Source: Candidatus Poribacteria bacterium
Lineage (GTDB): Bacteria; Poribacteria; WGA-4E; WGA-3G
Reading direction: 5' to 3'
Assembly (NCBI GenBank): GCA_022822085.1
Contig: JAJECK010000061.1
Span: forward strand, 10,025 to 74,024
DNA length: 64,000 nt
Below, piece after piece: positions 31 to 57,761 of this stretch. A program made the position numbers and the translations under genes. Positions within the stretch are counted from its first letter, which is position 1. Each line of letters opens with the position of its first letter. The notes beneath the pieces were generated by a model that saw only the letters and a program-made list of their open reading frames with translations, did no database searches and was not told the DNA's origin.

Positions 31-160
31 AGCGTATCTCATAAATCACTTGTAGGAGCGGGGTCTCCCCGCCCGTTTAGAAGACTCCTTTCTTATATAG
101 GGACGAGGTAACCTCGCCCGGACGATGAAGGTGTCCTATTATGATTTATGAGATATACTG
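31..160. mobile_element. MITE-like small foldback element (family C) with terminal inverted repeats TATCTCATAAATCA (35-48) and TGATTTATGAGATA (142-155). Its reverse complement matches 56789-56899 plus 57555-57589.
   Basis: Inverted termini are visible directly. The internal GC-rich palindrome gagcggggtctccccgccc is also visible. A second copy in the window (split by insertions) matches this one in reverse complement. Confidence 0.6.
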
Positions 161-186
161 TAGAATTAACTCAAATGAGTAGAACT

Positions 187-1344
187 ATGAAAAAACTTAT
201 TGCCATACTAATATTGATGATACACTCTCAGTTGCTTGCATTAGGTGAGTATTATCCAAAATGTCAGATACCCGCGGTTGTAGTAGCACACCTTTGTTCC
301 TGTAATTCAGAAACTGAAGAATACACCAGAATGCATGAAAAACCTTTACCAGCAGTCGGGACGCACCTAAAGTTTATGGATTCTGGTGAAACACTCGCGA
401 ATTGGAATGGTGAAGACACCGAAAATGTGAGACCATTACGCCTATGGGATGTAAATACAGGAAAACTAACTGGAACATATATGGGAAATGTAATTACAGT
501 TTCTCACAATAACGAATTGATTGCATGTTGGACTCTCAATCGAAATGACTTTTCACCAATTCTACTATGGAATGCAAAAACTGGCAAACTGAAACTCAAT
601 ATATCTGAAAGCAATCAATTTAGAATTAGCAAACTCTTATTTTCTCAGGATGGTGAGAAGTTAATAAGTTGTGGAAGATCGGAAGATAACAAACAGACTT
701 TTGAACTATGGGACACAGAAACAGGTGATCTTAAAGCAACATTAAAAACTAAAGACTATAATCTGGAACCAAGTACTTTTTCTGCCGATAGTCAAATTTT
801 TGTCAGTTCGGGAAATGGAGATATTCAGTTCAGGAATACTACAACTGGTGAACAGATCTTTAGTGTCAAAGATAGTCCTGCATATTTTTTCGATTTTGTT
901 TTTTCTCCCAACGAAAGCATGTTTGCTATCAGTTGTTCTGATGAGACAATTCGGTTGTGGAATACAAAATCACGCAAACAGTTTGCAGTATTGATTGGAC
1001 ATACAGGATCTATCTCTTCATTGGCATTTGCCCCTGATGGTAATACTATAGCAACTGCAAGTACAGACGAGACAATTCGACTCTGGAATACGAAGACTGG
1101 CAAACATATAACTACATTGGTTGGACATACAGAAACGGTCGAGAAAATTCTTTATTCTCCAGATGGAAAAACACTTGTAAGTGCAAGTAGAGATAAAACG
1201 ATTCGTCTATGGGATGTTGAAACGGGAAAGCACAAATCAACACTCGTTGGACATACAGAACCTCCTTCTTCAGTAGCGTTTTCTCCGGATGGCAAGAAAA
1301 TTGCGAGTGTTGGAAAAGAAATACTTCTATGGAAAATTGACTGA
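187..1344 (+). CDS. WD40-repeat beta-propeller protein, secreted (signal peptide MKKLIAILILMIHSQLLA). The ORF track starts at 148, but that ATG lies inside the MITE inverted repeat, so 175 or 187 is the more likely start.
   Basis: Multiple WD repeats (DETIRLWNTKTGK, DKTIRLWDVETGK, FSPDGK...). N-terminal hydrophobic signal sequence. Confidence 0.8.
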   Translation: MKKLIAILILMIHSQLLALGEYYPKCQIPAVVVAHLCSCNSETEEYTRMHEKPLPAVGTHLKFMDSGETLANWNGEDTENVRPLRLWDVNTGKLTGTYMGNVITVSHNNELIACWTLNRNDFSPILLWNAKTGKLKLNISESNQFRISKLLFSQDGEKLISCGRSEDNKQTFELWDTETGDLKATLKTKDYNLEPSTFSADSQIFVSSGNGDIQFRNTTTGEQIFSVKDSPAYFFDFVFSPNESMFAISCSDETIRLWNTKSRKQFAVLIGHTGSISSLAFAPDGNTIATASTDETIRLWNTKTGKHITTLVGHTETVEKILYSPDGKTLVSASRDKTIRLWDVETGKHKSTLVGHTEPPSSVAFSPDGKKIASVGKEILLWKID

Positions 1345-1359
1345 TAAGAGTCACAAGCA

Positions 1360-3639
1360 ATGAATATACAGATAGGAATTAACACTATGAAGTACATTAA
1401 TAAGAATCTGATTCGGACACGTTTTTGGTTTATAATTGTTTTCGTTATTTCGCTAACTATACTTGATCAATTTTATATTTACAGGAATGCTGACGCAATA
1501 GTGTACGCTCCAACATTTTTTGATGATATTAATTTTTCACCCGATGGCAAACGATTTGCAGCAGCGACTTCATTAGGAATTTGGCTCCATGACGCACAAA
1601 CATACCAAAAACGGCTCGTTCTCGATGGAACTGCTGGTATAGGTTATGGACAGATGTACGTTTTATTCTCACCTGATGGGAAGATGTTAGCAGTTGGTAG
1701 AGAAGGATCAAAAGAAATCCAATTGTGGAATCCTATTACAAATGAAATAATTAAGACTTTTATAAACAATTCAGCAAAGATGTCTTGCATAGCATTCTCG
1801 TCAGATGGCAAAACATTAGCAAGTGGAAACTACGACAAAACGATTTTGCTCTGGGACATAACAAGTGGCAATCTGGTAAAAACGTTAAAAGGACATACCC
1901 AAAAAATCACTTCCATTGATTTCTCTCCTGATAATGTAACTCTTGCAAGTGCAAGTTACGACAAGACAATTCGTTTATGGGACATACGCAATGGAAAATT
2001 GTATAATACATTGGATGGACATATAGATTTAGTCTATTCTGTTAGATATTCTCCAGATGGAAAGATTCTGGCAAGTGCAGGATTTCAAGAGATAATGTTG
2101 TGGGATGGACATACAGGTCAACATCTCAAAACCATTACAGGTCTTAGAGGTAGCGTTGAATCCATTGCATTTTCACCCGATGGAACAATGTTTGCAGCGG
2201 GTACTCACAAAGAGGTTAAGTTATGGAACATTAAAGAGACAGAATTTCATCCTTCAAACACGAAATTTAGCAAAACACAAACAGGTATATCATCAATTGC
2301 TTTCTATCCTAATGGAAAGACGATTGTAGGCATGAGCAGCGGTGGATTTCGCGATGTGATATTCTTTTGGGATGTTCGATCTGGACAGCAGAAGTTTATG
2401 ATATCAGACACTCAAAGAAATAGTGAACAAACAACCAAATATTCACCCGATGTAAATAGGTTAGTTCGGATTACTACAGGTAATCTATGGCAGGACGTGA
2501 TTAGATTTTGGCAAATTCCCACTAATACGTTTCAACTGTTAATTAGATCCATATTTCCAATGGAGAAAACTGAAACACGACTGTTTGATGTACATAAAGA
2601 ATTTGTCCAATCAACTATGTTCTCACCAGATGGCAAAACACTCGCAAGTATGAGTAATAGCGAAATTGTACTCTGGAACACTATTACAGGCAAACACAAA
2701 GAAATTTTAAGTGAACCATCAGCACAGTTCTATACACTTGCTTTCTCTCCTGATGGCAACACATTGGCAACGGGTGATGGATGGAATAACAATTGCATTC
2801 GTCTATGGGACACAAAAACTGGTGGGCAAATAGAAGTCCTTAAAGGACATGCTTCTTGGATTGATTCCCTTGCTTATTCTCCAAATGGTAAAAACTTGGT
2901 TAGTGGTAGTCGGGATAATACAATACGTCTATGGGACCTCAAAACTGGAAATCATAAGATAATACACAACAGGCATAATACAACGGTTCATAACACAGTA
3001 TTTTCGTCAAATGGAAAGTATCTTGCAAGTGTCCTACAAGATGACACGATCATATTGTGGGAAATGTCAACATTAATAAAGGACAATAAACCAAAAGCTA
3101 TATTAAAGGGACACACAACTCATATAAATCACCTGATATTTTCTAAAGATGGAAAAACACTTGCAAGTGGTAGTTGGGATAATACGATCCGTTTGTGGGA
3201 TACGAAAACAGGACTTTGTAAGGCAACACTTATAGGACATACTTCTGATATCAACTACCTCACATTTACACCAGATGGAAAGACATTAGTCAGTGGAAGC
3301 TATGATAGAACCGTTCGGCTATGGGAAACAATAACTGGTAGAGACCTTGCTGTCCTTGAAAAGGAAAGAGACCCACGGTTTCAGATTGTTATGTCCCCTG
3401 ATGGAAAGACCTTAGTTACTCAAGAAGATTATGAATCATTCCATTTATGGAACTTGAGAAATGGGAAACTCCGTCATTCTATAAAAGAAGATCAGGTTTA
3501 TTTCGATGCCTTCGCTTTTATAAATGGTGGTACGACTCTGATAAGTATGGATTGGAGTGATACATTACATGTTTGGAATTCGGGTATTGGTGGTTACAAG
3601 ATAAAAATAAAAACTAAGGAAGATTCAGACTTCAGATAG
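1360..3639 (+). CDS. WD40-repeat protein with N-terminal transmembrane anchor (759 aa).
   Basis: N-terminal TM helix (FWFIIVFVISLTILD). At least 10 WD repeats with (S/F)SPDGK...LAS and D.TIRLWD motifs. 15-bp gap to the upstream paralog. Confidence 0.85.
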   Translation: MNIQIGINTMKYINKNLIRTRFWFIIVFVISLTILDQFYIYRNADAIVYAPTFFDDINFSPDGKRFAAATSLGIWLHDAQTYQKRLVLDGTAGIGYGQMYVLFSPDGKMLAVGREGSKEIQLWNPITNEIIKTFINNSAKMSCIAFSSDGKTLASGNYDKTILLWDITSGNLVKTLKGHTQKITSIDFSPDNVTLASASYDKTIRLWDIRNGKLYNTLDGHIDLVYSVRYSPDGKILASAGFQEIMLWDGHTGQHLKTITGLRGSVESIAFSPDGTMFAAGTHKEVKLWNIKETEFHPSNTKFSKTQTGISSIAFYPNGKTIVGMSSGGFRDVIFFWDVRSGQQKFMISDTQRNSEQTTKYSPDVNRLVRITTGNLWQDVIRFWQIPTNTFQLLIRSIFPMEKTETRLFDVHKEFVQSTMFSPDGKTLASMSNSEIVLWNTITGKHKEILSEPSAQFYTLAFSPDGNTLATGDGWNNNCIRLWDTKTGGQIEVLKGHASWIDSLAYSPNGKNLVSGSRDNTIRLWDLKTGNHKIIHNRHNTTVHNTVFSSNGKYLASVLQDDTIILWEMSTLIKDNKPKAILKGHTTHINHLIFSKDGKTLASGSWDNTIRLWDTKTGLCKATLIGHTSDINYLTFTPDGKTLVSGSYDRTVRLWETITGRDLAVLEKERDPRFQIVMSPDGKTLVTQEDYESFHLWNLRNGKLRHSIKEDQVYFDAFAFINGGTTLISMDWSDTLHVWNSGIGGYKIKIKTKEDSDFR

Positions 3640-3654
3640 ATATGACAATTTTAG

Positions 3655-3796
3655 ATCATCAGGACTTACGCATTTTCTCTTAAAGTCCCCTTGATAAGGG
3701 GGATTTAGGGGGTTAAAAAGACTAAAAACACTGAAATATCGCATCATTTAACCCCCCTACCCCCTTATCAAGGGGGAATGCGTAAGTCCTGATCAT
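3655..3796. mobile_element. MITE-like foldback element with 17-bp perfect inverted termini ATCAGGACTTACGCATT (3657-3673 and 3777-3793, the latter as reverse complement) and an internal long hairpin (ccccttgataaggggg...ccccttatcaaggggg).
   Basis: Terminal and internal inverted repeats seen directly. Related termini (CAGGACTTAC) recur at 35464-35585 and 48465-48735. The element sits between two WD40 genes. Confidence 0.65.
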
Positions 3797-3823
3797 TTTA
3801 TCATACATGTTTCAGGAGTACTC

Positions 3824-5932
3824 ATGAGAAAACTGATTGTAATTCTTATAGCAATGTTACAGTTCCTGCCAAGTGGTTCTACCCAAGAATATTCAAAATG
3901 GGAATTACCTGAAGGTGCCTTGGCACGCATTGGAAAAGGACACATTACAGGTAACATTGTGTTTTCACCTGATAGTAAAATGTTAGTTATTCCGAGTTCA
4001 ATTGGGATCTGGCTATATGATGCAACGACATACAAAGAACTCAAGCTGCTGACAGCAGATGTGTCTAATATTGTGTTTTCACCTGATGGACTTATGTTTG
4101 CCGCTAATGATTCATCAGATAATTCTGTTGAATTGTGGGATATATCTTATGACCCAATCCAGATGAAATACAAAACTACACTAAAAGGTCATACAAAAGA
4201 TATTACGAGCATTAAATTTGCATCTGATGGTAATACGATTGCAACAGCAAGCGAGGATAGGACAATTATCTTGTGGGATATAAATACTAGCGAGAACAAG
4301 TATGTCCTTAAAGGACATACAAGAAAAATAAACGCTATTGTCTTCTCTTCAGATAACAGCATGTTGGCAAGTGGTAGTGATGGTGGAACAGTTATACTGT
4401 GGAATACAGAAACTGGTGATCAGATATTTATGTTCAAGGCAGAATCTAAGGACAAGCACTATAGAAACGCGGTGTCTGCTGTAGCATTTTCACCAGATAA
4501 CAAGGCTCTTGTTAGTCTAACCTATGACGGATCAATCCGATTATTTGATGTGAAATCCGGAGAACATATTCGGACACTCAAAGGGAAATTGTATGGTGGT
4601 CAACCAGAAGACTATTCAATTGCATTCTCTCCAGACAAGCAGACAATAGTAACTATAAATGATAATAATACAGAATTGTGGAACTTTAAGACAGGCAAAC
4701 TGCACTGGCAACATAAGGGACGAATACATATCTCTCCAGATTGGAGTCGATATGCGAGTGCGAAACAGACTGAAATCGAAATATGTGATATGAACGAGAG
4801 AAAACTGGTTAAAACACTTACTGATTTTAAATCGAGATACAAACCTTTGGTATTTTCTCCAGATGGTAAAAAACTTGCAAATGAACTGGGAATCTGGGAT
4901 GTTGACAATGATACGCACGTCTTCATCAATGAAGAACACGGTTTAATTGGTTCACCTGTGAGATTCATTCACGATGGAGACACAATTGCCAGTTGGGGGT
5001 ATAAACAAATACATCTATGGGATATAAATACTCAAAAGCAGATTAGAACTTTCTTAGGAGAGGTCACAGCAATGTCATCAGATGGAACTTTGATAGCAAC
5101 TGGTATTAAAAAGGTTAATAATTGGAATGAACCTTACTTTATACAATTGTGGAACACAAAAACGGGTGTAGGGGAACGGATAATCTCTACTGACAATAAG
5201 AATAGATTGCAGTTAATTCACTTTTCTCCAGACGGTCAAACATTGGTAAGTCGTGTTTTGAGTTCTGATCCCACACTTGAACTCTGGAATGTGAGTACAG
5301 GTGAACATAAATTAACAATCAATACCAAACCCTATAACGTTAATTCTGTAGAGTTTTTTCCTGATAGTCAAACGTTGATCGGTTTAGGCGATTATGGTAT
5401 TCCATTGTGGAACGTTGAAACCGGTGAGCTTATGACAACACTAAAAGGACATACAGGAGGCGTGGATTTTATTGTGTTCTCACCCGATGAAAGTGTTTTA
5501 GCGAGTGCCAGTTTTGACGAGACAGTTCGTCTGTGGAATACAAGGACCTTTGAACTCATTGCAACTCTTATTGGACATACAGAAAAAGTTTATTCAATTG
5601 TCTTTTATCCAAATGGTGAAACCGTAGCAACGTCAAGCTTTGGAGGGATTACTCGTACGTGGGATACAAAGACCGGACAACTTAAGAAAACACCCCTTGA
5701 ACATGAACCACATGCAATTCACCCAGATGGAAAAACATTAATAAGTTTAGGCGCAGGTAAAATTCAGTTTGTAGACACAAAAACATGGGAATCCATTCTG
5801 ACGCTTGATAACCATACCGATTACATTAGTACAATTATAGTATCTAAAGATGGAAAAACTATAGCAAGTGTTGGCAGTACTATTCTGCTCTGGAAAGCTG
5901 ATAATCCGAACCTATTACCTGTTAGAGAATAA
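3824..5932 (+). CDS. WD40-repeat protein, secreted (signal peptide MRKLIVILIAMLQFLPSGST).
   Basis: Signal peptide. Repeated FSPD(G/S)..LAS and D.T(I/V).LW(D/N) WD motifs throughout its 702 aa. Confidence 0.85.
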   Translation: MRKLIVILIAMLQFLPSGSTQEYSKWELPEGALARIGKGHITGNIVFSPDSKMLVIPSSIGIWLYDATTYKELKLLTADVSNIVFSPDGLMFAANDSSDNSVELWDISYDPIQMKYKTTLKGHTKDITSIKFASDGNTIATASEDRTIILWDINTSENKYVLKGHTRKINAIVFSSDNSMLASGSDGGTVILWNTETGDQIFMFKAESKDKHYRNAVSAVAFSPDNKALVSLTYDGSIRLFDVKSGEHIRTLKGKLYGGQPEDYSIAFSPDKQTIVTINDNNTELWNFKTGKLHWQHKGRIHISPDWSRYASAKQTEIEICDMNERKLVKTLTDFKSRYKPLVFSPDGKKLANELGIWDVDNDTHVFINEEHGLIGSPVRFIHDGDTIASWGYKQIHLWDINTQKQIRTFLGEVTAMSSDGTLIATGIKKVNNWNEPYFIQLWNTKTGVGERIISTDNKNRLQLIHFSPDGQTLVSRVLSSDPTLELWNVSTGEHKLTINTKPYNVNSVEFFPDSQTLIGLGDYGIPLWNVETGELMTTLKGHTGGVDFIVFSPDESVLASASFDETVRLWNTRTFELIATLIGHTEKVYSIVFYPNGETVATSSFGGITRTWDTKTGQLKKTPLEHEPHAIHPDGKTLISLGAGKIQFVDTKTWESILTLDNHTDYISTIIVSKDGKTIASVGSTILLWKADNPNLLPVRE

Positions 5933-6030
5933 GTGCAGTGTATTACCTAAAAGTTATACCTAATTCACCTGAGAAATCCAAATTCATTGTGGGATGAGAT
6001 ATCAGGGAATGCCTAACGGAGGAACAACAA

Positions 6031-8286
6031 ATGAAAGACTTTAACAACCACCAAAACACACTCAGCTCAAGGCTCGTATTCATCATCTTAGTATGTCTAA
6101 TCTTCTATCTCCTTCTGTACATTCCTATACCTGTTGATGCTCACAGTGTGTCTGAAAGTTCTAAAATCAAAGATTTCGCCTATTCACCTGATGGAAATAG
6201 ATTGGCAATAGCTGCTCATGATGAAGTATGGTTATTTGATGCACTCACCTATGAAAAACGACTCACTATAGAGGATAGGACACATCCTTTTGGTGGATGG
6301 TACAATCATGTTGTGTTCTCACCTGATGGAAGGACATTAGCAAGTGTAAATAACCGAAATGATGAGATTCAATTATGGAATCCAATCAATGGTGAAAATC
6401 TATTATCAATTCATGAACCAGCAGAATATATTACTTCTATTAGGTTTTCACCAGATGGGAAAAGAATCGCAAGTGAAGGATCAGATGATAATATCAGAAT
6501 ATGGGACGCACACACAGGTCAACTTATAAAAACTCTCAAAATTGACTTAGGTTCATCATTTACATTTTCGCCTGATGGTAATACGATTGCAACGGCAGGA
6601 TATCAGAAAGTCCATTTATGGGACGCACACACAGGTCAACTCATAAAGACATTTAATGGACATACAGATTTCGTGTTTTCAGTTGTATTCTCACCAGATG
6701 GAAAGATACTTGCAAGTTCAGGTTTTCAGGAAATTCTATTATGGGATCCACAAACAGGCAATAAACTAAATACGCTTGCTGGACATAGAGGGTGTGTTGA
6801 ATCTCTTGCTTTTTCTCCTGATGGATTGACACTTGCTGGTGGAAGTTACCAAGAAATATTACTGTGGGACGTTAGTGAAGCAAAACATCTCGATACACTT
6901 TCACTTAGAAATATTTTTACAGCAGGAGTTACTAAAATAGTATTTTCTCCAGATGGGAAGAAGATTGCAAGTATGAGTGATTCATATTGGAACAGGATTA
7001 TAATATGGGATGTCGAAACTGGAAAGTATAATCTAATGATCAAAGATGACCGGATATACAACAGCACTCCAATTAAATTTTCACCAGATGTCAATACTGT
7101 AACCTATATCGTTGAAGATTCATTATCGGGTTGGCAATACGTGTTCGTCTCCATGCAATTGCCTATAGAAAAACTTGTAACTGGAAAGACCAACATCGGG
7201 AAAATACAACGTCAAGGCACTAAATTAAGTAAAGTCCATGAAATACCTGTCTTCTACCAATCACCCGTTAAATCAACGTTTTTTTCACTTGATGGAAAAA
7301 CGACTGTTAGTATAGGCAACAATGAAATCGCTCTATGGGATACAGATTCAGGCAAACACAAAGTTACAATTAAAGACGAATTCAAACAAATATATTCTGT
7401 AGCATTATCTCCCGATGGGAAGACTCTCGCAAGTGGAAACGGTTGGAATAACAATCAGATTCGCTTATGGAACGCAATAAATGGAAATCTCATATCAATC
7501 CTCAATGGACATACGTCATGGATTGATGAACTGGCATTTTCACCAGATGGGAAAACGCTGTTCAGTGCAAGCCGGGACAATACAGTCCGTCTGTGGGATG
7601 CAGAGACAGGCGATCATAAAGGCACACTCAAAGAACATACCGCAGGTGTACATACGATTGAATTCTCACCCAATGGTGAACTGCTTGCAAGTGCATGTCA
7701 AGACAACACAATAATGCTATGGGAAGTGTCGTCTACTTTGTTGAACGATAAACCTATAGCAACCTATGTGGGACATACAGACAAGATCAATCAAATCAAG
7801 TTTTCTCCAAACGGTAACACACTTGCAAGTGCAAGTTGGGATCATACAATAAAGTTGTGGAATATTGATACTGGAAAAACTGAGACGCTCAAGGGACATT
7901 TCTCTCGAATTGATTACCTTGAGTTTTCAAAAGATGGGAACACTCTGATTAGTGGTAGTTTGGATAGAACTATCCGCCTATGGGACACAAATTCTGCCAC
8001 ACTCCGTACTATCCTTCAGAAGAGCAGAGAACGAAATTCACAAATAGTTCTGTCACCAGATGGGAAAACATTAGTTAGCAAGGAAAATTATAATTCACTT
8101 CACTTATGGGATTTGAATACGGGGAAACTCCAAACTTCCTTCAATGGAGGAGACTTTGAGACTTATGAATTCTTACCAGATGGTGAAAGCCTAATTAGCA
8201 CAGAACATCCTCAATATGGATTATATGTGTGGAATGTTGAGACTGGAAAACTTCAAAGGAAAATAGAAACACGAAACGTTAAATGA
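6031..8286 (+). CDS. WD40-repeat protein with N-terminal transmembrane anchor (751 aa).
   Basis: TM segment (LVFIILVCLIFYLLLYIPIPV). WD repeats (DDNIRIWDAHTGQ, DNTVRLWDAETGD, DHTIKLWNIDTGK). Confidence 0.85.
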   Translation: MKDFNNHQNTLSSRLVFIILVCLIFYLLLYIPIPVDAHSVSESSKIKDFAYSPDGNRLAIAAHDEVWLFDALTYEKRLTIEDRTHPFGGWYNHVVFSPDGRTLASVNNRNDEIQLWNPINGENLLSIHEPAEYITSIRFSPDGKRIASEGSDDNIRIWDAHTGQLIKTLKIDLGSSFTFSPDGNTIATAGYQKVHLWDAHTGQLIKTFNGHTDFVFSVVFSPDGKILASSGFQEILLWDPQTGNKLNTLAGHRGCVESLAFSPDGLTLAGGSYQEILLWDVSEAKHLDTLSLRNIFTAGVTKIVFSPDGKKIASMSDSYWNRIIIWDVETGKYNLMIKDDRIYNSTPIKFSPDVNTVTYIVEDSLSGWQYVFVSMQLPIEKLVTGKTNIGKIQRQGTKLSKVHEIPVFYQSPVKSTFFSLDGKTTVSIGNNEIALWDTDSGKHKVTIKDEFKQIYSVALSPDGKTLASGNGWNNNQIRLWNAINGNLISILNGHTSWIDELAFSPDGKTLFSASRDNTVRLWDAETGDHKGTLKEHTAGVHTIEFSPNGELLASACQDNTIMLWEVSSTLLNDKPIATYVGHTDKINQIKFSPNGNTLASASWDHTIKLWNIDTGKTETLKGHFSRIDYLEFSKDGNTLISGSLDRTIRLWDTNSATLRTILQKSRERNSQIVLSPDGKTLVSKENYNSLHLWDLNTGKLQTSFNGGDFETYEFLPDGESLISTEHPQYGLYVWNVETGKLQRKIETRNVK

Positions 8287-19134: not shown

Positions 19135-19214
19135 GTAGGTCGGGTAGAGGCACGAAACCCGACAGGATAACCACAATCAATACATGTCGGGTTTCGTGCC
19201 TCTACCCGACCTAC
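19135..19214. repeat. Perfect 30-bp-arm inverted repeat (gtaggtcgggtagaggcacgaaacccgaca / tgtcgggtttcgtgcctctacccgacctac) with a 20-nt loop.
   Basis: The arms are exact reverse complements. It is intergenic, between the 17604-18992 and 19376-20422 genes. Confidence 0.7.
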
Positions 19215-35426: not shown

Positions 35427-35463
35427 ATAATTGGCACCTCAATCATTTATTCCAAATATCTAC

Positions 35464-35585
35464 ATCAGGGCTTACGCAATTACCACAAATTAACCAATAA
35501 ATATGGTATAATTGCCATATATGCAGAATTGTGAGTTTTCGGCGCGCCTGCAAAGCACGCCTACCGTATATGCGTAAGTCCTGTA
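35464..35585. mobile_element. Degenerate copy of the CAGGACTTACGCA-inverted-repeat MITE family (termini cagggcttacgca / tgcgtaagtcctg).
   Basis: Inverted termini flank about 85 bp of AT-rich DNA that contains a GC-rich core (ggcgcgcctgcaaagcacgcc). Confidence 0.45.
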
Positions 35586-35621
35586 CATTTTATAATTAGA
35601 AACATTTGTTAGGGAATACAT

Positions 35622-48073: not shown

Positions 48074-48464
48074 TCTTTCGTTAGACTATAAATAGTATTG
48101 AAAGTTTATTAGACTATGTTTCATAAATGCTGGGACGCGCGTCCTGCCCCCACCGTATAACATAATACTCTGTGATATCTTTGTGAATTGTATAGAATAT
48201 CTAATCCGATGTCAACAAATTTGTGACTTAGAACTGCCCCCAGAAGGAAATCACCCAATGAATAAATTAATATTCGGACGGGACAGAAGAGCGTTACTCA
48301 TACCCTCAAATCGTTGCGTGGACACTTGTGGGTTTCGCACTTCTACCTGACCGACGATGGTCACTCTTAGTAAAACATAAAAATCAATAATTCTTAAAAC
48401 TAAATAACCCTGTATTCTATACATTTCATTTGACTTTTACAGTATTATGTGGTATTTATTATAA

Positions 48465-48735
48465 TCAGGACTTACAGACATACTGTAGGTAGTGAATACC
48501 AAATGAAGATTAAGTTATTAAACGGGTAATGTTAGTTTTCCCAAGCCTGGTAGGTGCGGTTTCCTAACCGCACCGAGCATAGTTATGGAATTACCTAATT
48601 TATTTTTTAATCTTCATAAGGCATTTATATCGTTGATTTGGTGCTTTGTAAGCACGCTGAATTTACAGAATTCTTCTGAAAATTACACATTTTTAGTAAA
48701 TTATAGAAAAATCGTGAAAATTGCGTAAGTCCTGC
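48465..48735. mobile_element. Composite MITE: outer element with CAGGACTTAC inverted termini (48465-48480 and 48721-48735) containing a nested copy of repeat B (48503-48620).
   Basis: Termini seen directly. The inner 118 bp is about 95% identical to 57440-57553. Confidence 0.55.
48503..48620. mobile_element. Repeat B: about 118-bp MITE-like element with inverted termini ATGAAGATTAAGTTATTAAACGGGTAAT / ATTACCTAATTTATTTTTTAATCTTCAT and a central hairpin (ggtgcggtttcctaaccgcacc).
   Basis: A near-identical second copy is at 57440-57553. Terminal and internal inverted repeats are visible. Confidence 0.65.
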
Positions 48736-48806: not shown

Positions 48807-50030
48807 ATGAAAAAACTTATAGTCATACCGTTGATTTTACTCTTATTCATCTGCATAGGTTGTGATACGGAACAGAAAGGTCCATCTCATCTGGATGTAG
48901 GTAAAGCAAGACTAATTGACAGTGGATTAGCGGTAGAAGCAGTTAATTATCTGTTAGAGGCAGAAAAAAGGGAAGAGGATAAAGCAGAACCTCGAGCACT
49001 GCTTGTTATTGCATATACGCATGCACTCGCATCAGGTGCTACAAGAGGACAGGAGTATGAAGTTGAATACAAGCGGCAAAAGCAACAAAGAATAGCTGCC
49101 TTAAACGATGCTGAGATTGACAAGATGATTGAAGTTCTCAGTAAACGTTCACAGGTCCAACAGAACGGTTTTCAAGCTTTAGTAGAGAAAGGTGCAGATG
49201 CTGCCAACGTTATTATTAATCATTTTGTTGCAGGCACACATTCAGAGATACATAATCACCTTACAGATGTCATGATAAAAATGAAATCTAAGGCTGTTGA
49301 ACCTATTATGAACGCGATCACTGATGCCGACACACCATCTGCAGTGAAAATGGAACTAATTCGGATACTCGGAGAAATCGGTGATAAGAAGTCAATTGAG
49401 AGATTAAAGTCTATAGACATGACCAATATGTCTTCCGCCCTTAAAATGGAATTATACACAACGTTTTATAGACTCGGGGATAGTTCATATAAATCCCAGA
49501 TACTTACGGGGTTAAATGCGAAAGAAGTGGAAGTGCGACGTGCTGCAGCAAAAGCGATGCCTAATCTGAAGAACGTCAACACATCTTCACTCATCACAGC
49601 ACTTAAAGATGATGACCCGCAGGTAGTTATGAACATTGTAAAATCACTTTCAGTTCACAAAACCAAGAATGCCGTTGAACCTTTAATAAACGTCCTGAAG
49701 AGTGAGATTAAAGATGCTGATAATGAAAAACAACAACAAAATATCAAGCAAGAGGTATTAAATACACTTATTGCCTATGTTCATGCAGGTGGTGAGCTCA
49801 AAAGAGGAATCGCGAAAAACGTCGCTTATCTGCTCATCAATAAGGAAGTAAGCAGTGATAATGTACGGCTTCGGATTGTTACATTCTTGACGGATTCTGT
49901 GAATGTCAAGTCACTTAAAGCAGCAAAGGTGATGGACGATATATATAATAAACTATATACTTATTCACAACAGGAAGAAAGCGATTTCGTGAGAAGAGCT
50001 CTCCTTGATTTGCTTAATGATATCAAATAA
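48807..50030 (+). CDS. HEAT-repeat (PBS-lyase-like) lipoprotein.
   Basis: Lipobox (LLFICIGCD). Repeated helical ..VR..A..AL...K.. HEAT-like units. A paralog lies directly downstream. Confidence 0.65.
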   Translation: MKKLIVIPLILLLFICIGCDTEQKGPSHLDVGKARLIDSGLAVEAVNYLLEAEKREEDKAEPRALLVIAYTHALASGATRGQEYEVEYKRQKQQRIAALNDAEIDKMIEVLSKRSQVQQNGFQALVEKGADAANVIINHFVAGTHSEIHNHLTDVMIKMKSKAVEPIMNAITDADTPSAVKMELIRILGEIGDKKSIERLKSIDMTNMSSALKMELYTTFYRLGDSSYKSQILTGLNAKEVEVRRAAAKAMPNLKNVNTSSLITALKDDDPQVVMNIVKSLSVHKTKNAVEPLINVLKSEIKDADNEKQQQNIKQEVLNTLIAYVHAGGELKRGIAKNVAYLLINKEVSSDNVRLRIVTFLTDSVNVKSLKAAKVMDDIYNKLYTYSQQEESDFVRRALLDLLNDIK

Positions 50031-56685: not shown

Positions 56686-56788
56686 AGAAGCGGTATTACA
56701 CTGTTTTTGATCATCGGGAGCAGCCAGAACCGCGAGTAGAAACGGAAACGATTGAGAGGTTGACAATGCGGAGTGCTGTAGGATAAAC

Positions 56789-57589
56789 TTCCTACAGTAT
56801 ATCTCATAAATCATAATATTACACCTTCATTGTAGGGGCGAGGTTACCTCGTCTCTATATAGAAAGGGTTCTTCTAAACGGGCGGGGAAACCCCGCCCCA
56901 TAGGTGTCAATTTAAGAATATGTCCGCAAAGTAGTAGGCACACTCCGTGTGCCGTCCACGATAATAGTTTTCAGAAAGTAGTCCGCGGACGCCATGTGCT
57001 ATGATCTTTTTGCTTGCGGACGGCACACGGAGTGTGCCTGCTACCTTTAAATCTCCGCTAAATTGACGCCTATAGGGCAGGGAAACCGAGCCCCATAGGT
57101 GTCAATTTAGTGTCTACTATAATAAGATTTGACCTGTTCTTATGTAGCACAAACTTTATGAAGATTAATTTATTAATTCGGTAATTTATTATCCGTACGA
57201 GACAGGTGTCCTCCGTCGCTGGCGAGGCGGGGAATGCCTAAATGGCATTCATACCGTTGATTTCTTCCTAACCTCGCCAAATTACCGAAATATTTTCTAA
57301 ATCTTCATAAAGTTTGCGGTACAAAAAGAGTTCCGCGATTTTATAAATCCGATAATCCCGATTCAGACACCCCTGGCGCAGCGAAAGCGCGCCTGTGAGG
57401 GGGGCAAAATGTCTTAAATTGACGCTTATGGGGCGGGAGATGAAGATAAAGTTATTAAACGGGTAATATTAGTTTTCCCAAGCCTGGTAGGTGCGGTTTC
57501 CTAACCGCACCGAGCATAGTTATGGAATTACCTAATTAATTTTTTATCTTCATGACCCCGCCCCTACAAGTGATTTATGAGATACGCTC
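56789..57589. mobile_element. Nested cluster of MITE-like repeats. A family-C copy (56789-56899 plus 57555-57589) is interrupted by: a 22-bp-arm hairpin (56933-57043), a palindromic CCCCATAGGTGTCAATTTAG element (57056-57110, with half-sites at 56886-56920 and 57412-57437), a family-D element with TIR CAAACTTTATGAAGATT (57147-57318), and a repeat-B copy (57440-57553).
   Basis: All inverted repeats and the matches to 31-160 and 48503-48620 are visible by direct comparison. The cluster fills the roughly 1.07-kb gap between the AAA ATPase gene and hsdM. Confidence 0.6.
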
Positions 57590-57761
57590 TAATTTGTGCA
57601 GTCCCGGACGCCAACTAAAAATTTGCACTATAATTGTGTGTAGGTCCTTATGGTTTCTACTATAATCCATAACAGATCGGCAATTTTGAACTTGACAAAT
57701 ATTCTAAAAACCTCTATAATCGTGATAATTTTGTTAAGCAATAGATAGGTACAAATGAATA

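Follow-up and report, generated by a model that had tools for sequence, protein, structure and literature searches.

The window, by which we mean the whole 64-kb stretch of DNA analysed here, has a G+C content of 39.5% and carries three short intergenic elements with a common inverted terminus. Copy 1 lies between two co-oriented WD40 propeller genes and fills their 184-bp spacer. Copy 2 separates the genes for an FGE-sulfatase and an ABC ATPase, and copy 3 those for a GFO/IDH/MocA oxidoreductase and a HEAT-repeat protein. An earlier note on this DNA had described the same gene settings and had proposed that the three loci form a MITE family with CAGGACTTACGCA terminal inverted repeats (TIRs). 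The features are listed below; the elements are designated MITEs on the reading that is argued in the following paragraphs.

3655-3659 (no strand): left target-site duplication of copy 1, ATCAT, identical to 3792-3796 and abutting the CAGG terminus
3660-3791 (+ strand): MITE copy 1, 132 bp, Poribacteria subfamily A, read as a foldback variant from its TIRs, alignment and fold
3792-3796 (no strand): right target-site duplication of copy 1, ATCAT, read in the sequence
35461-35465 (no strand): left target-site duplication of copy 2, TACAT, read in the sequence
35466-35583 (- strand): MITE copy 2, 118 bp, subfamily B, inverted with respect to copy 3 and to a Poribacteria element (L055)
35584-35588 (no strand): right target-site duplication of copy 2, TACAT, read in the sequence
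48466-48734 (+ strand): MITE copy 3, 269 bp, subfamily B, decayed, from motif and alignment
48503-48617 (+ strand): nested 115-bp repeat B with termini ATGAAGAT...ATCTTCAT, inside copy 3 and outside the CAGGACTTACGCA family

The 64-kb window was searched for CAGGACTTACGCA with at most two mismatches, and dinucleotide-preserving shuffles (n=100) served as background. Six matches were found, which form three convergent pairs (3660+/3779-, 35466+/35571- and 48466+/48722-). Shuffled windows held a mean of 0.96 matches and none of the 100 gave six. Relaxing the search to three mismatches over the whole window yielded only chance-level additions. The left and right ends depart from CAGGACTTACGCA at 0 and 0 positions in copy 1, at 1 and 0 in copy 2 and at 2 and 0 in copy 3; the elements measure 132, 118 and 269 bp, respectively. 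No ORF of 100 aa or more lies inside any of them, and tblastn detected no transposase similarity in the 64-kb window, element interiors included. Exact 5-bp direct repeats, read directly in the sequence, abut copies 1 and 2. These duplications, which are missing from the earlier note, are the strongest evidence of transposition within the window.

Both TIRs of copy 1 (3660-3672 and 3779-3791) are exact over 13 nt. If the flanking AT and the inner TT are counted, the exact termini extend to 17 nt (ATCAGGACTTACGCATT at 3657-3673 and its complement at 3778-3794). The element had been described as a near-perfect foldback with such termini, and RNA folding bears this out, with a near-perfect hairpin predicted at -72.5 kcal/mol (z = -10.7). 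Five Poribacteria elements, drawn from four or more other assemblies (one each in L083, L023 and L063 and two in L048), can be aligned with copy 1. In this Poribacteria-wide group, subfamily A, the left 58 nt are near-invariant across genomes and consist of the TIR followed by TTYCYTCTTAAAGT and then by CCCCCTGATAAGGGGGATTTAGGGGG, that is, the TIR plus a CCCCC-loop-GGGGG-N5-GGGGG hairpin. The right halves are of different types. The right arm of copy 1 is the left module inverted, with indels, and it is because of this inverted right half that the element folds so strongly. Copy 1 is a foldback variant of subfamily A, and an unusual one. Its relatives occupy other loci with other duplications, for example CTTGT, ATTAA and AATAG, which indicates repeated transposition of subfamily A in Poribacteria.

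A precise empty site for copy 1 would read ...TTTAGATCAT joined directly to TTTATCAT... In the relative with a WD40 orthologue (L125, 81% identical) the upstream region is different and rearranged and contains IS630 remnants, so that it offers no empty site for comparison with this copy. Copy 1 lies in a region (148-8286) where four WD40 propeller genes form an array. Of these, the third has an orthologue that is only 81% identical in a strain (L125) whose ABC ATPase is 98% identical. That strain is without the two upstream WD40 paralogues at the array position and has IS630-like remnants there instead. The array appears to be fast-evolving and rearranged. Nothing points to recombination between the WD40 paralogs, for which the earlier note had suggested that the elements may be sites.

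The left TIR of copy 2 (35466-35478) has one mismatch (CAGGGC), and the right TIR (35571-35583) is exact. When copy 2 is reverse-complemented and the nested repeat is removed from copy 3, these two and the Poribacteria element L055 align over their whole length, with a common interior that includes a GGTAGGCGYGCTTTGYAAGCGCGC hairpin. The interiors are therefore homologous and define subfamily B. The description of the interiors as unrelated must accordingly be abandoned for copies 2 and 3; copy 1, of the other subfamily, has its related interiors in the five Poribacteria elements.

The history of copy 2 could be followed in related genomes. Orthologues of the adjacent ABC ATPase are 64-98% identical, several of them from genomes named Candidatus Poribacteria, and the gene order SelA / FGE-sulfatase / ABC ATPase / UvrD is kept in three relatives (L121, L122 and L124). 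The closest, L121 (ABC ATPase 98% identical), has the copy 2 MITE at the same position in the spacer, with further mutations in the TIRs. The MITE is absent from L122 (88%), where the spacer is 63 bp, and from L124 (87%). The window spacer without the MITE and with one copy of the duplication would read ...AAAATGTAGATATT..., which resembles the ...ATTTTGTAGGAAT... of the relatives; the comparison is only approximate because the spacer has diverged. This distribution places the insertion of copy 2 after the split of the 87-88% lineages and before that of the 98% strain. In L124 a GTAG-tagged palindrome stands in the FGE-sulfatase/ABC spacer (about 2830-2910 of that locus), exactly where the window has copy 2. 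It is the same element as one found at 19135-19214 of the window, a perfect palindrome with 30-nt arms (GTAGGTCGGGTAGAGGCACGAAACCCGACA) and a 20-nt loop that resembles a REP element. Different mobile repeats thus colonise one spacer.

Copy 3 is decayed. Its left TIR (48466-48478) is degenerate, with two mismatches (CAGGACTTACAGA), its right TIR (48722-48734) is exact, and its ends carry no target-site duplication (ATAAT versus CAAAA). The nested repeat B, which had already been recognised, matches a second copy in the window with 97% identity (48503-48609 versus 57440-57546). About 35 additional nucleotides in copy 3 are missing from the other members of subfamily B.

Repeat B is itself a MITE-like family, the second in the window, of about 115 bp with termini ATGAAGAT(W)AAGTTATTAAACGGGTAAT and ATTACC...ATCTTCAT and an internal GGTAGGTGCGGTTTCCTAACCGCACC hairpin. 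Its copies lie at 48503-48617, 57440-57554 and 57141-57326, the first within MITE copy 3 and another embedded in a GC palindrome; around the copies in the window no target duplication could be clearly made out. Two of them belong to a non-coding region of about 1 kb (56690-57760) that is composed of nested repeats, including GTAG-tagged GC-rich palindromes such as GTAGGGGCGAGGTTACCTCG and GGGCGGGGAAACCCCGCCCC. Parts of this region are inverted copies of 27-163, with arms of 77 nt (88% identity), 39 nt (97%) and 39 nt (90%). Two short-read contigs of Logan SRR16351678 (L126 and L127) encode proteins identical to the window oxidoreductase and HEAT protein, and they end at the equivalents of about 48404 and 48590 in the window. 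Ends at the copy 3 / repeat B cluster fit an assembly break at multi-copy repeats.

The distribution of the terminus beyond the window was surveyed by scanning a genome collection, one genome per species, with the query TCAGGACTTACGCA. Far from being confined to the three places in the window, an outcome that the earlier note had weighed against its own reading, the motif was found at at least 120 loci elsewhere. Most of the matches listed are from Cyanobacteria and 15 are from Candidatus Poribacteria; the few remaining ones are from Chloroflexota, Agitococcus and other Moraxellaceae, Undibacterium and other Burkholderiaceae, and a Kuenenbacteria MAG. Beyond the motif, the sequences around these loci are unrelated. 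Each match was paired with its nearest inverted partner and the innermost short pairs were kept. The paired inverted copies that had been predicted do occur: the loci fetched from the genomes hold 84 of them, 29-371 bp long with a median of 109.5 bp. Such pairs are found in Poribacteria and Cyanobacteria as well as in Chloroflexota and some Proteobacteria. Of the 84, 48 lie between two exact copies of a 5-bp sequence, against one or two in outward-shifted control windows, an excess characteristic of transposition that cuts the target with a 5-bp stagger. The T seen at the fifth position of these duplications stems from the search pattern itself (TCAGG...), and no target preference is claimed. 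As a control, 120 viral contigs with the exact 14-mer CAGGACTTACGCAA were inspected. A partner TIR was present in only three, and almost all of the viral matches look like chance.

A module of the form CCCCC-N2-5-CCCCC-N6-7-GGGGG, or its complement, occurs at 3691-3717 and 3750-3775 of the window. It recurs in ISPlag1-like MITEs of Poribacteria, of cyanobacteria (Waterburya and Stenomitos) and of a Chloroflexota MAG (L030, L039, L010, L087, L048 and L063), in seven of the 84 short elements altogether, and none of the full-length elements examined has it in the termini. It could be a micro-repeat in its own right, nested in the MITEs, or else a structural module that has been conserved.

The same terminus also bounds transposase genes. 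This is the case at four of the 120 genome loci listed. One of these, from Phormidium tenue FACHB-886 (L106), is a 1142-bp element with the same ends and an intact ORF of 354 aa. Another (L073) is a full-length element with the same ends and a frameshifted transposase, whose N-terminal and C-terminal fragments match the NCBIfam model NF049921 (IS701 family transposase) at 1.5e-12 and 1.4e-42, respectively, both below the full-length cut-off because this copy is split. The fragments also match Pfam DDE_Tnp_1. A protein search returned more than 6900 homologues of the transposase, typically 337-343 aa in length, which carry PF01609 and PF13546 and some of which are named IS701 family transposase. 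In Egbenema bharatensis (L128) a homologue lies between the same ends, 1142 bp apart. Three 1055-bp copies (L209-L211) with an identical transposase (P0094) were found in one 6.99-Mb ENA genome, which is Uma2-rich and cyanobacterium-like. Across cyanobacterial genomes the intact transposase genes flanked by the 13-mer encode 337-354 aa.

Metagenomes were then scanned with an alignment of these IS701-family transposases, and 80 loci with 59-71% identity were obtained. Both (C/T)AGGACTTACGCA TIRs are present at 73 of them, spaced by 1054-1395 bp; at the remaining seven, the short contig contains a single TIR or none. Exact 5-bp duplications flank 14 of the 73 two-TIR elements. Among the full-length genomic copies, a duplication (ATTAT) was found at L211 and none at L106, L073, L128, L209 and L210. 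ISPlag1 of Planktothrix agardhii, a 1306-bp element that encodes a 337-aa transposase of the IS701 group, has been described with the TIR CAGGACTTACGCAAGCACGCTATATATAG (PMC2464740). The identity of the ends with those of ISPlag1 and of its transposase-bearing relatives makes the window motif the end of an ISPlag1-like insertion sequence of the IS701 family. Short cyanobacterial elements agree in their extended termini with particular subgroups of insertion sequences (AACTGGCACA or CTATATATAG, for example), and this agreement supports a specific pairing of MITE subfamily and parent insertion sequence. No full-length element with extended termini matching Poribacteria subfamily A or B was seen among the metagenomic elements examined. 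The cognate transposase that the earlier note had proposed to look for can thus be named from other genomes, where ISPlag1-like IS701-family elements have the same ends; neither the 64-kb window nor the 15 Poribacteria loci of 8 kb that were retrieved were found to encode one.

The full-length elements are very compact (1055 bp for an ORF of 337 aa), and in many of them the stop codon TAA of the transposase lies inside the right TIR (...GCG TAA GTCCTG; 4946-4955 in L106 and 9008-9020 in L209-L211). Coding constraint from this stop codon may be a partial reason for the conservation of the 13-mer. The ENA analysis accession of the cyanobacterium-like genome with L209-L211, which holds at least three copies of the insertion sequence (ERZ25070695), is close to those of Poribacteria relatives of the window (ERZ25068633 for L121 and L125, ERZ25070917 for L124). 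The cyanobacterium-like genome and the Poribacteria relatives may come from the same study or habitat, which may offer a route for transfer between phyla; closeness of accessions is not evidence of co-occurrence.

We consider it highly probable that the three loci are MITEs that derive, as non-autonomous elements, from ISPlag1-like insertion sequences (IS701 family). The MITE family that the earlier note had proposed is borne out by three convergent pairs, by the 5-bp duplications and by the IS701-family ends. The termini, the duplications, the family relationships, the ends shared with transposase-bearing elements and the presence or absence among relatives are all direct observations. They give the picture by which MITEs are recognised: short non-coding elements with TIRs, a target-site duplication of fixed length (copies 1 and 2), dispersed copies that form families, TIRs in common with transposase-encoding elements, and a filled/empty-site difference among relatives (copy 2, on an approximate alignment). 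From the chemistry of DDE insertion sequences in general we infer how they would move. Each element keeps a TIR of about 13 nt, (C/T)AGGACTTACGCA, which would be the site bound by the DDE transposase. A full-length copy located elsewhere in the genome, now or in the past, would provide the enzyme in trans, and the enzyme would excise and insert the short element. Staggered cleavage of the target and its repair would then create the 5-bp direct duplication.

The three copies appear to differ in age. Copy 1, with perfect 17-nt ends and an intact duplication, looks recent and may still be mobilisable. Copy 2 is older, given its one mutated end and its presence in a close relative as well. The degenerate end, the lack of a duplication and the nested foreign repeat mark copy 3 as a dead relic.

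Starting as MITEs, one or more of the elements could later have been co-opted by the host. The hairpin of copy 1, lying between the WD40 genes, might work as an attenuator or affect RNA stability, for example, or copies of subfamily B might modulate the 5' UTR of the downstream gene. The strength of the copy 1 fold (-72.5 kcal/mol, z = -10.7), in an element that fills the 184-bp spacer between co-oriented genes, would suit such a role, as would the near-invariance of the left 58 nt of subfamily A across genomes and the orientation of the two subfamily B copies, which is the same relative to the downstream gene. In addition, a strong sigma-70-like match (TTTACA-18-TATAAT, 11 of 12) at 48436-48465 directly abuts copy 3. 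With a promoter-like site in this position, transcription probably runs through copy 3 as part of a 5' untranslated region; the HEAT-repeat gene at 48807 would then have copy 3 and its nested repeat B in its 5' leader. Against co-option, promoter-like and terminator-like sites in the three element regions do not exceed the shuffled expectation and no U-tract terminator was found, so that the idea of the elements supplying promoters or terminators gains no ground. A scan of the whole window against Rfam at gathering thresholds matched no family. The orientation argument is based on two copies, and the chimeric right halves can explain the uneven conservation of subfamily A. We therefore regard co-option as unlikely.

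A more specific scenario is somewhat less likely again. The elements would have reached Poribacteria from cyanobacteria by horizontal transfer in a shared habitat, such as a sponge holobiont, no transposase would now be resident, and the 58-nt module of subfamily A would be kept as a structural signal of the host at the RNA or DNA level. If this were true, copy 1, with the module duplicated as a foldback between two WD40 genes, would have to be regarded as domesticated rather than as junk DNA.

The manner in which the short elements came to their loci deserves separate consideration. They could be full-length insertion sequences that each lost the interior in place, and precedent exists in the 197-bp remnants of ISPlag1 left by deletion (PMC2464740); copy 3, with its irregular interior and no duplication, could be taken in this sense. 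The interiors hold no transposase-derived sequence, however, and the short subfamilies, with homologous non-coding interiors, are found at different loci and in different Poribacteria genomes with 5-bp duplications of their own. Dispersed short copies that each have their own duplication indicate that the short forms themselves transposed, and we give deletion in place very little chance. That the inverted 13-mers are instead an operator, a palindromic site for a regulator of the downstream genes, is suggested by their short inverted pairing and by the position of all three elements 32-72 bp upstream of a start codon, but it is contradicted by half-sites that stand a variable 106-243 bp apart, by the locus-specific 5-bp duplications at these half-sites, by the absence of copy 2 from the corresponding spacer in relatives and by a 13-mer that bounds transposase genes in other phyla and equals the published ISPlag1 TIR, so that it can be dismissed with near certainty.

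The interpretation of the three loci as MITEs implies no new mechanism: ISPlag1-like MITEs are ordinary selfish DNA, here in a host for which a limited literature search found no earlier description of them. Three conspicuous palindromes between genes are thereby accounted for and assigned to a parent family, a help in annotating Poribacteria genomes, which are repeat-rich and whose short-read assemblies break at MITE sites. The 13-nt end is nearly unchanged across Cyanobacteria, Poribacteria, Chloroflexota and some Proteobacteria even though the transposases are about 60% identical, and it is a convenient marker for the horizontal spread of this lineage of insertion sequences and MITEs.

Two kinds of known repeat can be set apart from the window elements. 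REP/RAYT palindromes are 20-40 bp long, GC-rich and GTAG-tagged and have no target duplication. The termini in the window are not GTAG-tagged hairpins and carry duplications, which rules out this identity; the GTAG-tagged palindromes elsewhere in the window and inside the interiors of subfamily B are separate elements. Nezha, the cyanobacterial MITE that is best known, of 130-170 bp in Anabaena variabilis and Nostoc PCC 7120 that is linked to ISNpu3, is similar in its cyanobacterial MITE character, with TIRs, direct repeats and AT-rich targets. The template copy of Nezha is flanked by a 10-bp direct repeat, CATTATCTAC (PMC6042816), and the difference from the 5-bp repeat found here excludes an identity with Nezha/ISNpu3.

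The closest known insertion sequences are ISPlag1 of Planktothrix agardhii CYA126/8 and its relatives, in which the terminal 13 nt CAGGACTTACGCA are identical. Target duplications of 5 bp are found with both the full-length ISPlag1-like elements and the short ones. The window elements differ from ISPlag1 in that they are 118-269 bp long and non-coding, have only the terminal 13 nt or so in common with it, lack its extended 29-nt TIR (...AAGCACGCTATATATAG) and reside in a Poribacteria-like genome instead of a cyanobacterium. The 197-bp ISPlag1 remnants at the mcy locus of Planktothrix (PMC2464740) are likewise short non-coding derivatives with the same TIR. They have been described as deletion products at a single locus, whereas the window elements belong to dispersed subfamilies with their own target duplications. 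A limited literature search found no published description of an ISPlag1-type MITE lineage in Poribacteria. Also comparable with the window elements are the MITEs of Nostoc, Trichodesmium, Okeania, Coleofasciculus and other cyanobacteria, which have the same TIR, a length of 90-130 bp, a 5-bp duplication and AT-rich intergenic targets. The cyanobacterial MITEs have other interiors and extended termini (e.g. AACTGGCACA or N5-CTATATATAG) that match cyanobacterial insertion-sequence subgroups, whereas subfamilies A and B of Poribacteria have interiors of their own.
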